Notes under the pieces: model-generated
Seen by the model: only the letters and a program-made list of their open reading frames with translations
The model's database searches: none
What the model was told of the DNA's origin: nothing
From: Burkholderiales bacterium
GTDB taxonomy: Bacteria > Pseudomonadota > Gammaproteobacteria > Burkholderiales > SG8-39
NCBI GenBank assembly: GCA_035317085.1
Contig: DATHHS010000154.1
Location: 1 to 54,067 of the forward strand
Length of the DNA: 54,067 nt
Direction of reading: 5' to 3'
Translations under genes and position numbers: made by a program
Shown here: positions 1,953 to 5,149 of the stretch, one piece after another
Layout of the letters: each line of letters begins with the position of its first letter
Numbering within the stretch: position 1 is the first letter of the stretch

Positions 1953-1960
1953 GCCCCACG
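1953..1960. repeat. Target-site duplication copy 1 (GCCCCACG)
   Basis: This 8-mer lies immediately outside the left inverted repeat. It is identical to 5107-5114, immediately outside the right inverted repeat, and to 5142-5149. Confidence 0.8.
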
Positions 1961-1978
1961 GGTAGTGTCTCAGTTTGA
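1961..1978 (+). repeat. Left terminal inverted repeat (IRL)
   Basis: GGTAGTGTCTCAGTTTGA. Partial similarity continues inward (tgGTtAC versus aaGTaAC at the other end). Confidence 0.8.
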
Positions 1979-2029
1979 TGGTTACAAGGTTTGTAACCCG
2001 CTGAAAACGCAGTGCAACAAAACCCGCCT

Positions 2030-2233
2030 CTATTCCTTCTTGAGCAGTCCCCGGCCCTCCTTGTATTTCCTTACGAACTCGCTCTCAACAAGCTCTTTGA
2101 TTGCATTGTTGAGTAACGTGCGAAGCACGGCGCTTCCGTTCGTTCCCAGTATCTGCAGCGCAACCAGTTCTTGGATGAATTCGGACTGCTCTCTCGAAAT
2201 CCTATAGCTCCTGGGGACAGTTTTGCCGGCCAT
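2030..2233 (-). CDS. Ribbon-helix-helix (CopG/Arc-like) DNA-binding protein, 67 aa
   Basis: The ORF is in the track. The N-terminal strand RSYRIS is followed by two helices (REQSEFIQELVALQILG, GSAVLRTLLNNAIKEL), which is typical RHH architecture. A 26-bp palindrome lies 19 bp upstream. Confidence 0.55.
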   Translation of the reverse strand: MAGKTVPRSYRISREQSEFIQELVALQILGTNGSAVLRTLLNNAIKELVESEFVRKYKEGRGLLKKE

Positions 2234-2251
2234 AGCGGCATCTTAGCATCG

Positions 2252-2277
2252 GTTTGTATGCCAATTGACATACAAAC
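2252..2277. promoter_or_regulatory. Palindromic operator candidate upstream of the RHH gene
   Basis: GTTTGTATG-ccaattga-CATACAAAC has perfect 9-bp arms. It lies 19-44 bp upstream of the RHH ATG (2233). Confidence 0.45.
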
Positions 2278-2376
2278 GGGATGAAACTAGACTGGCCGTG
2301 TGTTCACCGGCGCATAATCCCCAGTCTAGGGAGAGACACCAAAGGATAATCGGTTAGGGACGCGGACTTCTGGTGA

Positions 2377-2449
2377 CACCACCGGAGGGAGTCGAACCCC
2401 CGACCTCAAACTTACCGAGTAAGCGCTCTATCCACTGAGCTACGGTGGT
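2377..2449 (-). tRNA. tRNA-like gene with a non-canonical anticodon arm (probable pseudo-tRNA or tRNA mimic)
   Basis: The reverse strand reads ACCACCG TA GCTC AGTGGATA GAGC G CTTAC TCGGTAA GTTTG AGGTC GGGGG TTCGACT CCCTC CGGTGGT G. The acceptor stem is 7/7, the D arm is perfect and the T arm has the TTCGACT loop. The total is 73 nt. The anticodon stem pairs at only 3/5 positions and position 33 is C. Confidence 0.5.
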
Positions 2450-2464
2450 AGGTGCTGCAACAAC

Positions 2465-2493
2465 AGGGACCCGCGAAAGCGGGTCTCTTTTTT
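2465..2493 (+). terminator. Strong intrinsic terminator on the + strand with no + strand gene upstream
   Basis: aGGGACCCGC-GAAA-GCGGGTCTCt has a 10-bp stem with one G-U and a GAAA tetraloop, and it runs into TCTTTTTT. Confidence 0.6.
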
Positions 2494-2636
2494 CCACTCG
2501 CCAATCAGCACCAAATCAGCGAGCTTCCCTATGGACCACAATGTATAGGGCCTTGAGTCGCGTGTGCAACTAATACTAGTGTAGTGTCAAGATGCAAGCG
2601 TAGTTTTCTCAAGCGCCTTCGGAACTCTGCCCCGGA

Positions 2637-3467
2637 TCAACTTGCGAGCGCTGCGATTTCCTCCAATGTCCATACGTGATCCGAGATTCCAGCTTGCATT
2701 GCTGGAGTGACGCGCAGCGTTTTGTGAATCCTTGCGAAGTTATAAAACATGTAGTGCAGCGCGACTGCGCAACAATGGTTCTCGACTTTGCGGCTAAATC
2801 CATTCGTCAGCCGCGTGAATCGACGCATGTGCATCCGCATGGTTAGATTCTGCCGCTCAACGAAACTCGTGCTGATGTGCTTTTCATCGGGATTTCCGCA
2901 TACCGCATTTTTGCGCGCTCCACAGCACTCGCCGGGGCTGTAGCGGCGGCTCTCGATATTGGTAGCGGGGTTGCTGTAAAGCTTCACGAGCATAGCGTAG
3001 TCAATATTGCGCCCGAACGAGCCTTCAACAGCAGTTAGATATGGCGTATGACCATCGCTCGTAAGCTGAACGCGATTCGCCATCCGCGAAGCTAGATCGT
3101 CAATAAAGAGCTTCGCGTATTCGAGCCAACGTTGCCCGATGAGCCAGGACGGCACTAGTTTGGTATCAGCGTCAATTGCCACCCAGGTGTAGACATCGCC
3201 ATAGCCAAGCTCGCCCCGGCGCATCGGGGGAACGTTCTTTTCTTTCATTCCGCAGAACGACCAAATTTCATCCACCTGAACGCGCTTGCACGGCAGATTC
3301 CGCAGTGTTTCGTTCTGGTACAGATCACAGGCCGTCCCTACGTCCACCAGCAGCTTGGTGACGGTATTGATGCTCACGTCGCACAGGCGAGTAGTGGCGC
3401 GCATGCTCATGCCTTCGGTCAGGCATCCGATGATCCGGGCGCGGTCTTGGAGGCCTAGGCGGTTCAT
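2637..3467 (-). CDS. IS1-family DDE transposase (single ORF, N-terminal HTH)
   Basis: The motifs align to IS1 InsAB: VDEIWSF (IS1 MDEQWGY), LTSDGHTPY (IS1 MTDGWPLY), and VERQNLTMRMHMRRFTRLTNGFSRKVENH (IS1 [29 protein letters not shown]). I place the start at ATG 3467 (MNRLGLQDRARIIG). The track start at 3506 is a GTG that contains a promoter. Confidence 0.85.
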   Translation of the reverse strand: MNRLGLQDRARIIGCLTEGMSMRATTRLCDVSINTVTKLLVDVGTACDLYQNETLRNLPCKRVQVDEIWSFCGMKEKNVPPMRRGELGYGDVYTWVAIDADTKLVPSWLIGQRWLEYAKLFIDDLASRMANRVQLTSDGHTPYLTAVEGSFGRNIDYAMLVKLYSNPATNIESRRYSPGECCGARKNAVCGNPDEKHISTSFVERQNLTMRMHMRRFTRLTNGFSRKVENHCCAVALHYMFYNFARIHKTLRVTPAMQAGISDHVWTLEEIAALAS

Positions 3468-3474
3468 AATGAAC

Positions 3475-3503
3475 ATTATGCTTAACAAATGCCGCCGTGT
3501 CAA
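3475..3503 (-). promoter_or_regulatory. Near-consensus promoter for the transposase (TTGACA-17 nt-CATAAT)
   Basis: The reverse strand reads gtgTTGACAcggcggcatttgttaagCATAATgttcattATG. The -10 ends 7 nt before ATG 3467, which implies a leaderless or near-leaderless mRNA. Confidence 0.45.
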
Positions 3504-3523
3504 CACGGTTACTATTATATATG

Positions 3524-3552
3524 TTGCAAACAGCCATCTAGTTAGTTAACAT
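3524..3552 (+). promoter_or_regulatory. Candidate promoter for the AAA+ ATPase gene (TTGCAA-17 nt-TAACAT)
   Basis: It lies in the AT-rich divergent region, 33 nt upstream of ATG 3585. AGTTAA motifs repeat at 3545-3550 and 3560-3565. Confidence 0.35.
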
Positions 3553-3584
3553 GTGCATCAGTTAATTAAATTGCTAGCGGTGAC

Positions 3585-4829
3585 ATGACGGCGAAGCAAA
3601 CGCTCAGTGATGCGGATTGGCAGTCAAAGACCTATGAAATCATAGAGTTATTCAGCCCAGGCGCGCCTATCGACGAAAACGACCTTTTCGCGGGTAGGCA
3701 ACACGAAATCAGCCAGATCATCGAGGCCGCCCTTCAAAGGGGCCAGCACGCAATCGTCTATGGTGAGCGTGGCGTCGGGAAAACCTCGCTCGCGAAAACC
3801 TTCTCGCTTCGGCTAATTCGCCCAACAAAGACCCTCTCCAGCGTAATCGTCAATTGCGATCCGCAGGATACGTTTACTAGTCTTTGGCGAAAGGTCTACA
3901 AGGATCTTGGCGAAGAGGGCGGCGGAAATGTTTTAGATGGCACAACCATCAACGATATTTCCCCTGATGATGTGCGCAGGGTGCTAACGCGGTTCGACCT
4001 GACGACTACCCCTATCATCATCCTGGACGAGTTCGACAAACTTCAAGACCCAAACGCGAAGGCGTTAATCGCGAACACCATAAAATCCTTGTCTGATTAT
4101 TCCGTTGCGGCCACGATTGTTCTGGTAGGCGTCGCCAAATCAGTCAACGACTTGCTCAGGGACCATGCATCCATAGGGCGCGCACTAATCCAAATTCCAA
4201 TGCCCCGCATGAAAGCGGCGGAATTGGCAGAAATCATAGACAAACGCCTGCCTAGAGTAGGGATGACGATCACACCCGCAGCTAAAGCACAAATTGTTGC
4301 TTTATCTGCTGGATTGCCCCACTACACGCATTTGCTCGGACAACATGCTGGCCGTCGCGCAATCGAATCAAGATCGCTGACGATAGATGTGCAGCATGTC
4401 GATGATGCTGAACGCGACTGTTTGGAGCGCGCCCATCATTCGATTAGGGAGCAATACCATCGGGCAACACAAAGCCCGAGAAGCGGGAACATCTACAAAG
4501 AGGTACTACTTGCTTGCGCCCTTGCCGAACCGGATGAATTGGGTTTTTTCCCCGCAAAGGCCATAGAAGTTCCGCTCTCAATAATTATGCAAAAGCAATA
4601 TAAGGTAGCCATGTTTGGCCAGCATCTGAAGATACTGTGCGAAGCGGATCGCGCAAAAATGTTAGAAGTGACGGGGTCCCCACGCAGATTCCGCTATAGA
4701 TTTGAGGAACCCTTAATGCAACCGTATGTGATTTTGCGCGGACTTGCAGATGGGCTAATAACAAAAAACACGCTTAGACAATTGATGCCTAACTATCTCC
4801 AGCCACGACTTTCTGGCGGCGAGGTCTAG
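3585..4829 (+). CDS. Orc1/Cdc6-like AAA+ ATPase, 414 aa (passenger gene)
   Basis: FAGRQHEISQIIEAALQRGQHAIVYGERGVGKTSLA contains the Walker A motif and IIILDEFD is the Walker B motif. A VLVGVA sensor-like strand follows, then a helical lid and a probable C-terminal winged helix. The gene is AT-richer than the host. Confidence 0.75.
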   Translation: MTAKQTLSDADWQSKTYEIIELFSPGAPIDENDLFAGRQHEISQIIEAALQRGQHAIVYGERGVGKTSLAKTFSLRLIRPTKTLSSVIVNCDPQDTFTSLWRKVYKDLGEEGGGNVLDGTTINDISPDDVRRVLTRFDLTTTPIIILDEFDKLQDPNAKALIANTIKSLSDYSVAATIVLVGVAKSVNDLLRDHASIGRALIQIPMPRMKAAELAEIIDKRLPRVGMTITPAAKAQIVALSAGLPHYTHLLGQHAGRRAIESRSLTIDVQHVDDAERDCLERAHHSIREQYHRATQSPRSGNIYKEVLLACALAEPDELGFFPAKAIEVPLSIIMQKQYKVAMFGQHLKILCEADRAKMLEVTGSPRRFRYRFEEPLMQPYVILRGLADGLITKNTLRQLMPNYLQPRLSGGEV

Positions 4830-5040
4830 CGCCCCATCTGGCCTTGGCTGCTTTTTGAGCGATTTGGACTCTTCGTTGCGGGGTAAGAGTCTGCGCTCGT
4901 ATGACTCCACCCTTCAACCCTCCGGGCCGCCCTCGTATGGGCTCTTTTTGCCGTTCCTCTTCAATGCTGCCCGTGGAAATATCGACAATTAGCTTGGCTA
5001 ACTGATTCGCGTCGCGCGGTCTGCGGGGACGTGTTGCCAT
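4789..5040 (-). CDS. Small basic protein, 83 aa (RPRDANQLAKLIVD ... IAQKAAKARW motif)
   Basis: The ORF is in the track, with ATG at 5040 preceded by a GGGGG SD-like run. From memory, the N-terminal NQLAK.IVD and C-terminal KAAKARW pattern recurs in small hypothetical proteins of mobile regions. It overlaps the ATPase 3' end by 41 nt, convergently. Confidence 0.5.
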   Translation of the reverse strand: MATRPRRPRDANQLAKLIVDISTGSIEEERQKEPIRGRPGGLKGGVIRAQTLTPQRRVQIAQKAAKARWGARPRRQKVVAGDS

Positions 5041-5088
5041 GCCCCCATTTTATCCCGCCTCATCCCGGCCAGTCCCGCAGCGTTACTT

Positions 5089-5106
5089 TCAAACTGAGAC
5101 ACTACC
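5089..5106 (-). repeat. Right terminal inverted repeat (IRR)
   Basis: TCAAACTGAGACACTACC is the exact reverse complement of 1961-1978. Confidence 0.8.
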
Positions 5107-5114
5107 GCCCCACG
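5107..5114. repeat. Target-site duplication copy 2 (GCCCCACG)
   Basis: It is immediately outside IRR and identical to 1953-1960. Confidence 0.8.
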
Positions 5115-5141
5115 GGTAGTGTCTCAAACTGAGACACTACC
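5115..5141. mobile_element. 27-bp IR-IR mini-element (remnant of a second element copy)
   Basis: GGTAGTGTCTCAAACTGAGACACTACC consists of an 11-nt IRL tip joined to a 16-nt IRR tip. It is followed by a third GCCCCACG. Confidence 0.6.
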
Positions 5142-5149
5142 GCCCCACG
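5142..5149. repeat. Target-site duplication copy 3 (GCCCCACG)
   Basis: It is identical to 1953-1960 and 5107-5114. Confidence 0.7.

Follow-up and report, generated by a model that had tools for sequence, protein, structure and literature searches.

Insertion sequences (IS) that contain passenger genes are known as transporter IS (tIS), a notion first framed for the IS1595/IS1 group by Siguier, Gagnevin and Chandler in 2009, as cited in later work (PMC3129680, PMC7986276). Defense genes have been described as cargo of mobile elements including Tn7-like transposons (10.1101/2021.08.23.457393) and the Gamma-Mobile-Trio (10.1101/2023.03.28.534373). Both tIS and defense cargo on larger transposons are, then, already known. 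Here, we report a computational analysis of a 54,067-nucleotide stretch of DNA from a Burkholderiales bacterium (assembly GCA_035317085.1, contig DATHHS010000154.1; the whole stretch is referred to below as the window), in which a mobile unit of 3,146 bp, at positions 1961-5106, encloses the genes for an IS1-family transposase and for a AAA+ ATPase of 414 amino acids.

AAA+ modules of the ORC/Cdc6 clade with winged helices recur in anti-invader systems, such as BrxC, BrxD and DUF499 (PMC12839542). For the ATPase of the window, a sequence-only reading had offered two accounts: a dedicated AAA+ partner of the transposase in a two-component IS1 module, or a stand-alone NTPase carried as defense cargo. 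We find that the ATPase is a passenger: it travels with the element, and different element lineages have exchanged it. The interpretation that we favor, and consider likely, is that of exchangeable cargo of an IS1-family tIS, probably an uncharacterized single-gene conflict or defense ATPase.

Cargo exchange in an IS1-family element

The element is bounded by the inverted repeat GGTAGTGTCTCAGTTTGA (1961-1978 versus 5089-5106), which is perfect over 18 nucleotides and 88% identical over 25, and the 8-bp target duplication GCCCCACG borders both of its ends. With passenger genes inside the repeats of 1961-5106 and GCCCCACG on both sides, the unit is built as a tIS. By ISfinder conventions, IS1-family ends show a GGnnnTG tip and a target duplication of 8-9 bp, with which the repeat tip GGTAGTG and the 8-bp duplication of the window element agree. 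The GC content of the element is 52%, compared to about 61% in its flanks and 62% in the whole window.

The transposase is, by its sequence, a divergent member of the IS1 family. The Pfam DDE_Tnp_IS1 match is marginal and confined to the C-terminal motif (26.0 bits against a cut-off of 24.1), and the NCBIfam model transpos_IS1 scores 50.8 bits (E 1.9e-13), below its cut-off of 100; the motif ER.N...R...RRFTRLTN.FSKK is conserved in an alignment of 15 homologues, and plasmid homologues carry the annotation ‘IS1 family transposase’. The zinc finger of classical IS1 InsA and the InsAB' frameshift are absent from this alignment, where a single open reading frame (ORF) begins at the helix-turn-helix (HTH), with no Cys-rich N-terminus. 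IS1 subgroups with a single ORF exist, and the window transposase is consistent with them. The mechanically called ORF spans 2637-3506; the true start is the ATG at 3467, as indicated by the conserved MN(R/K)L start in 15 of 15 aligned homologues. With this start, the transposase and ATPase genes diverge across 117 bp of AT-rich DNA (36.8% GC), just as had been read from the sequence.

A metagenome scan with the transposase alignment yielded the 80 closest relatives (57-77% identity), for 55 of which the sequence on the cargo side extended over 1.4 kb or more and could be assessed. The ATPase is present in one of these 55 loci (L149 only), and several metagenomic transposases are closer to that of the window than any ATPase-linked one. 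Complete sibling elements, 42 in all, range from 2.1 to 4.8 kb, and perfect 8-bp duplications surround 35 of the 40 that have both flanks on the contig. Elements lacking the ATPase have thus plainly transposed, with canonical duplications, and the ATPase accordingly appears, from these sequences, not to be needed for transposition. The constant parts of the siblings are the transposase, the repeats and, in 36 of the 42 complete elements with other cargo, a homologue of a small 83 amino acid protein (orf83). Between the window and its nearest siblings, DNA homology is limited to 2644-3483 (transposase) and 4969-5106 (5' half of orf83 plus repeat), ending at 3467-3483 on the side where the siblings carry other cargo.

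Two cargo slots can be delineated in this family. Slot 1, which is occupied by the ATPase in the window, lies between orf83 and the transposase start, and its occupant is usually divergent from the transposase via a shared AT-rich control region; slot 2 follows the transposase and, in the window copy, holds a 67 amino acid ORF (orf67) and a tRNA-Thr gene. In the siblings, slot 1 is filled by unrelated genes, many of which encode known defense proteins with PADLOC matches covering most of their length: PD-Lambda-2_B-like (9 elements, best E 1e-49), SoFic (4 elements, 1e-54), RmrA (2 elements, 3e-55), PDC-S45 (2 elements, 3.4e-18), and HEC-06/GmrSD (3e-162), dGTPase (2e-119) and HEC-04 (3e-53) in one element each. 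Altogether, about 20 of the 42 complete elements contain a PADLOC-recognized protein. Pfam additionally identifies P63C and ClpP/SDH-type proteases in slot 1. The contents of slot 2 in the siblings include proteasome-like, ClpP-like and trypsin-like proteins, a pair of GNAT and a small ORF, and a RES/Xre pair.

Approaching the element from the ATPase side, a scan of one genome per species retrieved 512 relatives, from which 80 loci of many phyla were kept. In 17 of these genome loci, a transposase homologue (52-68% identity) lies immediately upstream, in divergent orientation, and an orf83 homologue immediately downstream, and in most of the 17, the three genes together lie within inverted repeats of the window type. 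The link between ATPase homologues and IS1-type transposases with GGTAGTG ends, on which the sequence-only reading had hung its partner model, is therefore real, if confined to a minority of the loci. The linked copies have 8-bp duplications of their own (for example, TCTTGTCC, CGCAGTTA, AACGAATG, GATCCTGG, CACATTGC, GCGTGCCG and TAGTCGTG), the ATPase-carrying elements measure 2.6-4.1 kb, and the transposase-ATPase-orf83 unit is found in Usitatibacteraceae, several Alphaproteobacteria, Acidobacteria, Nitrospirota and Aminicenantales. This is a true family of transposable elements, and members with the ATPase as cargo have transposed repeatedly. Repeats of the window type bound elements in 24 of the 81 sources scanned (the 80 genome loci and the window), and also most of the metagenomic loci.

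The identity matrices of the transposases and ATPases from 14 ATPase-carrying elements are uncorrelated (Mantel r=0.10, p=0.18), whereas those of the transposases and orf83, which served as the positive control, are correlated (r=0.45, p=0.0008). Individual pairs illustrate the point: the transposases of L007 and L015 are 80% identical and their ATPases 47%, and those of L002 and L022 are 73% identical and their ATPases 40%. In a neighbor-joining tree of 81 ATPases, the linked ones are scattered and form no single clade, so that a single capture of the ATPase can be rejected. The lack of correlation, together with this scatter, indicates that the ATPase is shuffled among element lineages. Conversely, orf83, the divergence of which tracks that of the transposase, belongs to the backbone of the element.

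The ATPase, its relatives and its possible roles

The ATPase gene starts with ATG, and its product contains a Walker A motif, LFAGRQHEISQIIEAALQRGQHAIVYGERGVGKTSL (GERGVGKTS at residues 60-68), and the Walker B motif IIILDEFD (ILDEFD at residues 146-151), followed by a lid and a C-terminal winged helix at about residues 300-400. The motifs and the length of the protein had been read correctly from the sequence, as had its Orc1/Cdc6 or AAA_16/AAA_22 architecture; the N-terminal residue pattern given there is present as well, apart from a trivial miscount of one residue between ‘A’ and ‘G.H’. Among Pfam families, AAA_22 (8.7e-13), nSTAND1 (2.9e-10), AAA_16 (6.6e-10) and TniB (3.2e-6) match the protein. 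The TniB match (27.1 bits against a gathering score of 22.4) is limited to the P-loop core and is the fifth-best of the overlapping families, and phrog_296, a Mu-type ‘DNA transposition protein’, is matched weakly (3.3e-6). The NCBIfam orc1/cdc6 model TIGR02928 gives 47.8 bits (E 9.2e-13), short of its cut-off of 181, and the ORC-CDC6-like family PF24389 reaches E 0.012. STAND conflict proteins typically carry fused sensor repeats and an effector domain. The nSTAND1 profile PF20703 matches residues 30-243 (profile positions 11-221 of 379) with 40.8 bits against a cut-off of 27.1; neither STAND-type repeats nor an effector domain was found in the 414 residues by Pfam or in the AlphaFold2 model.

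That model, built on a 30-sequence alignment (pLDDT 86, pTM 0.83), comprises a AAA+ base, in which additional helices separate strand 2 from Walker B, a helical lid and, at the C-terminus, an HTH that bears a beta-hairpin wing. In a Foldseek comparison against the PDB, archaeal Orc1/Cdc6 structures (2v1u, 1w5t, 2qby and 1fnn) come first, with E values of 7e-12 to 6e-11 over about 400 aligned columns, and ORC/Cdc6 subunits make up the top 15 matches. TnsC appears at rank 48, and the 50 listed matches include none with a description naming IstB or MuB. The choice between TniB/IstB, Orc1 and STAND similarity, which the sequence-only reading had left to structure comparison, thus falls to Orc1. 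A search of solved structures with the ATPase profile detected ClpC/ClpB at the level of the P-loop and weak Cdc6 matches only. We conclude that the ATPase has the Orc1/Cdc6 fold but is not a member of that family.

The ATPase is not a chance ORF, since it has more than 4,000 homologues, about 410 amino acids long, in which the Walker motifs are invariant. Their annotation is generic throughout (‘Cdc6-like AAA superfamily ATPase’, ‘ATP-binding protein’ and the like). PADLOC 2.0 contains no model that matches the protein over its full length; the best match is mad8 (2.3e-8, residues 46-101), followed by PDC-S01 (4e-4).

Most of the sampled relatives do not travel with the transposase. An intact ATPase without transposase, orf83 or repeat was found in 55 of the 80 genome loci, and eight further loci retain relics only. 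Solitary intact ATPases far from any element imply a function that is independent of the element. Clustering of the ORFs within 3.5 kb of the solitary copies and a Pfam search of 104 flanking ORFs revealed no recurrent partner: the 104 ORFs match 146 Pfam families, mostly of housekeeping proteins, none of them in more than three loci. A multi-gene system around the ATPase is rejected on this ground. Solitary ATPases 69-71% identical to that of the window lie either between ku and ligD or next to a gene for an HTH protein; in the former case, on a Usitatibacter-like contig (L161, 4890-10913), a 69%-identical ATPase and a TctC gene are located between these two end-joining genes. Another relative with 69% identity is element-borne.

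ATPase homologues are also found on plasmids and phages. On a Clavibacter plasmid, the homologue adjoins DUF4238, GNAT and Fic genes; an ISL3 transposase beside a Salinibacter plasmid homologue is of an unrelated family, and its presence there seems a coincidence. Two temperate actinobacteriophages encode homologues, Mycobacterium phage Kevin1 (gp30; 42% identity, 92% coverage) and Gordonia phage Cashline (gp34), in both cases between lysis or tail genes and the integrase; in Kevin1, the lysis cassette is on one side, and the integrase and repressor on the other. Kevin1 gene 30 has been described as an orpham AAA-ATPase of the central variable region of cluster N phages (PMC6544188), a region that has been linked to prophage-mediated defense (PMC6544188, citing Dedrick 2017).

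Two independent associations, the slot shared with known defense genes and the homologue in a phage defense hot spot, suggest a defense role for the ATPase, to which we assign about even chances; the recurrence of winged-helix ORC/Cdc6-clade modules in anti-invader systems is in keeping with it. The ATPase might be a self-contained conflict or defense protein, an ATP-dependent switch that would oligomerize on DNA via its initiator-type AAA+ module and winged helix and interfere with the replication or establishment of invading DNA, be it phage or plasmid. Alternatively, it could sense invading DNA and arrest the cell. Both DNA binding and replication interference are speculative. As for the sequence-only account of stand-alone defense cargo, the cargo part is supported, and the defense part derives from the company that the ATPase keeps, namely its slot-mates and the phage homologue.

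Several observations weigh against the ATPase being exchangeable defense cargo. It has no recognizable effector domain, no PADLOC match beyond the P-loop (mad8 over residues 46-101) and no conserved partner, and the neighbors of its solitary chromosomal copies are mainly housekeeping genes, not defense islands. It is for the missing PADLOC match and effector domain and the setting of the solitary copies that we hold the defense role at even chances. Furthermore, the TniB match formally exceeds its gathering score; about one-fifth of the sampled ATPase family rides the element, a stronger affinity than expected of a random passenger, with the linked ATPases spread over the whole tree instead of one clade; and the resolution of the neighbor-joining tree and of the Mantel test over 14 elements is coarse.

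A bolder version of the cargo interpretation, which we put forward tentatively and lean somewhat against, would see the family as a widespread, cross-phylum ‘defense shuttle’ of 2-5 kb, with two slots that swap immune modules of one or two genes along with tRNAs, including ochre suppressors. The ATPase would then be a new single-protein anti-phage or anti-plasmid system acting directly on the replication of invader DNA, and orf83, rather than the ATPase, the true second component of transposition or its regulation.

Of the rival explanations, a neutral or non-defense passenger picked up by chance survives best, and it is unlikely. The ATPase would have a cellular role, for example, that of a chromosome- or replication-associated DNA-binding ATPase, as might be expected from solitary copies near housekeeping genes, one of them between ku and ligD, and from the lack of a PADLOC match and effector domain. 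However, the family is patchily distributed across phyla in unrelated contexts, is carried on IS, plasmids and temperate phages, and shares its slot with known defense genes, and the invariant Walker motifs argue for selection rather than decay.

We regard it as quite improbable that the ATPase is a facultative helper or serves to maintain the element, a cargo whose benefit goes to the element itself although the transposition chemistry can do without it. Such a protein might bind element or host DNA and modulate replication of the transposition intermediate, transposase expression from the shared region, or retention of the element. The existence of intact solitary ATPases far from any element and of homologues in the variable regions of temperate phages speaks against this, as do slot-mates that are host-benefit defense genes and the lack of co-evolution with the transposase, even though the shared divergent region of 117 bp holds a 6-nucleotide inverted repeat, CCGTGT-CA-ACACGG, the fold is that of the Orc1/Cdc6 replication initiators, and linked ATPases, about a fifth of the family sampled, occur across the whole tree.

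A dedicated transposition partner, that is, an IstB-, TnsC-, MuB- or TniB-type subunit that chooses targets or confers target immunity, is close to refuted by considerations of universality, co-evolution, gene order and fold: the constant position and divergent orientation inside the repeats in 17 of 80 loci, the weak TniB and phrog_296 matches and TnsC among the structural matches are outweighed by the near absence of the ATPase from the closest transposase relatives (1 of 55), the perfect duplications of siblings with unrelated genes in slot 1, the lack of transposase-ATPase correlation, the intact solitary copies in random contexts, the divergent gene order, unlike the AAA+ partners in IS21, Tn7, Mu and Tn5053, which are co-directional with the transposase, and a second insertion in the window that coincides precisely with an end already present (5107-5149), contrary to what target immunity would bring about.

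Element backbone, further cargo and setting

The genes of the element are arranged in the order orf67, tRNA-Thr(GGU), transposase, ATPase, orf83 (Table 1). To the right of the element are aroB, aroK and pilQ-like genes (names taken from the ORF translations), and the element sits between housekeeping genes.

Table 1. Features of the window element and of its immediate borders.
Feature	Coordinates	Strand	Basis or remark
Target-site duplication copy 1, GCCCCACG	1953..1960	.	same as 5107-5114, 5142-5149
Terminal inverted repeat, transposase-start-distal end, GGTAGTGTCTCAGTTTGA...	1961..1985	+	IS1-type GGnnnTG tip fits
67-aa ORF (orf67), second cargo slot	2030..2233	-	ORF list
tRNA-Thr (anticodon GGU), second cargo slot	2375..2450	-	ARAGORN; Rfam tRNA 54.9 bits, E 2.9e-10
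IS1-family DDE transposase, 276 aa	2637..3467	-	N-terminal HTH; conserved D66, D138, E204
Divergent AT-rich control region between transposase and ATPase	3468..3584	.	117 bp, 36.8% GC
Orc1/Cdc6-like AAA+ ATPase, 414 aa, slot 1 cargo	3585..4829	+	ORF, profiles, homologue alignment, AlphaFold2, Foldseek
83-aa small basic protein (orf83), conserved accessory gene	4789..5040	-	alignment, synteny
Terminal inverted repeat, orf83 end	5082..5106	-	repeat comparison
Target-site duplication copy 2, GCCCCACG	5107..5114	.	sequence identity
27-bp miniature element, two 12-nt repeat tips around AAC (GGTAGTGTCTCA-AAC-TGAGACACTACC)	5115..5141	.	
Target-site duplication copy 3, GCCCCACG	5142..5149	.	sequence identity

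The orf83 gene converges on the 3' end of the ATPase gene, with an overlap of 41 nucleotides, and occupies the identical position in all ATPase-carrying elements. Its product is characterized by the motifs KRPRDxNQLAKxIVDIATGE and GGxKGGKARAxxLSPExRKEIAKKAAxxRW and has more than 7,800 homologues, about 80 amino acids long, which no Pfam family covers; in nearly all elements, its gene is conserved beside one of the terminal repeats. Searches of orf83 and orf67 against PADLOC, NCBIfam and PHROG returned nothing informative, orf83 corresponding to phrog_2384 (unknown function) only; one Mesorhizobium plasmid record labels an orf83 homologue ‘histone H1’. We consider orf83 a better candidate than the ATPase for an accessory factor in transposition or its regulation.

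The control region shared by the transposase and ATPase genes contains, facing the transposase, a promoter-like TTGACA-17-CATAAT (3503-3475) that is near consensus (11/12). In slot 2, orf67 has no significant match in Pfam, NCBIfam, PADLOC or PHROG and no homologue in the 80 genome loci. Its start is closely preceded by a palindrome of 13+13 nucleotides (GTTTGTATGCCAA/TTGACATACAAAC, 2252-2277), and its 5' end also carries a promoter-like site (2265-2293); orf67 may encode a small autoregulated DNA-binding protein.

Genes for tRNAs recur as cargo across the element family (L104 3005-3078; L106 1909-1984 and 2731-2816; L099 143-227; L125 1016-1189; L128 939-1033; L101 5930-6639), and the Rfam tRNA model confirms the carried tRNAs at 43-70 bits. 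In three elements, class II tRNA-Leu-like genes with the anticodon UUA adjoin the transposase start. Their anticodon loop is CTTTAAA, and they are predicted to suppress ochre codons.

Minimal elements (L007, L009, L079, L089, L092, L093, L100 and others) have the transposase stop codon about 9 nucleotides from the tip, which places the end of the ORF within the terminal repeat; in elements whose slot 2 is occupied, the transposase 3' end is instead followed by an insert of 0.2-2 kb. The window and L001, the two closest relatives, each contain a stretch resembling a repeat tip beyond the transposase stop, TGTAGTGTC at 2579-2596, 57 nucleotides away, in the window and GGTAGTGG, about 93 nucleotides away, in L001. 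That these are relics of an inner repeat, with slot 2 cargo acquired via a new outer repeat, was not established: 30 elements scored no better than controls.

Exactly 8 bp separate the miniature element at the right border from the full element. Similar arrangements were seen in L009, where a second repeat lies 8 bp past the element end (3038-3069) and is followed by different sequence, and in L005, where the second end (1998-2100) is that of another IS1-like element, whose transposase has 37% identity. Such second ends, 8 bp beyond an element, suggest insertions that repeatedly hit the 8 bp next to an end already in place, or else junctions of the dimer type.

Comparison with known systems

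If the cargo interpretation is true, the idea of a first AAA+ target-selection partner in the IS1 family is wrong and should stay out of annotation. A sharply bounded slot, with conserved flanks, known ends and one or two genes, would provide a handle for the discovery of defense genes: as about half of the slot occupants are recognized defense proteins, the other half, including the ATPase family with its more than 4,000 members, are well-framed candidates for new immune genes. Defense genes apparently spread on elements far smaller than Tn7-like transposons, integrative elements and prophages. The analysis also raises the questions of the role of the ubiquitous 83 amino acid protein and of the reason for tRNA and suppressor tRNA cargo. 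In the literature searched, with ISfinder outside the search, we found no IS1-family element with swapped slots, mostly defense cargo, a co-evolving 83 amino acid protein and tRNA cargo.

With the IstB (IS21), TnsC (Tn7), MuB (Mu) and TniB (Tn5053/Tn402) systems, the window element shares a P-loop AAA+ protein beside the transposase of a DDE transposon. Unlike these partners, the ATPase is not universal in its element family, is replaceable by unrelated genes, is divergent from the transposase with which it does not co-evolve, and is structurally nearer to Orc1/Cdc6.

The archaeal Orc1/Cdc6 proteins resemble the ATPase in the AAA+ base, the lid, the winged helix and the helix insertion between strand 2 and Walker B. 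The differences are a sequence identity of 13-18% and the TIGR02928 score (47.8 versus 181 bits), a bacterial and patchy distribution on mobile elements, as IS cargo, in solitary copies and in a phage variable region, and no sign of an origin or an MCM-type partner. As in BrxC, BrxD and DUF499, an ORC/Cdc6-type AAA+ module is followed by a winged helix; unlike BrxC, a protein of 1,200-1,300 amino acids in a multi-gene system, the ATPase consists of 414 amino acids, is solitary, and matches PADLOC models in the P-loop only.

The conserved mobility backbone with a swappable slot rich in defense or toxin genes is a feature that the window family has in common with Tn7-like elements, the Gamma-Mobile-Trio and the cluster N phage region. 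It differs from Tn7-like elements and prophages in its size of 2.1-4.8 kb, its one-protein transposase and its cargo of, usually, one or two genes. Closest of all are the tIS, which likewise combine a single DDE transposase, short terminal repeats, a duplication of fixed length and genes unrelated to transposition inside the repeats; the transposase and GGnnnTG tip of the window element are IS1-type, and its duplication is 8 bp. What sets the family apart from tIS is the presence of two defined slots with cassette-like turnover, a cargo dominated by recognized anti-phage proteins and tRNA genes, and a conserved accessory gene of 83 codons that co-evolves with the transposase.

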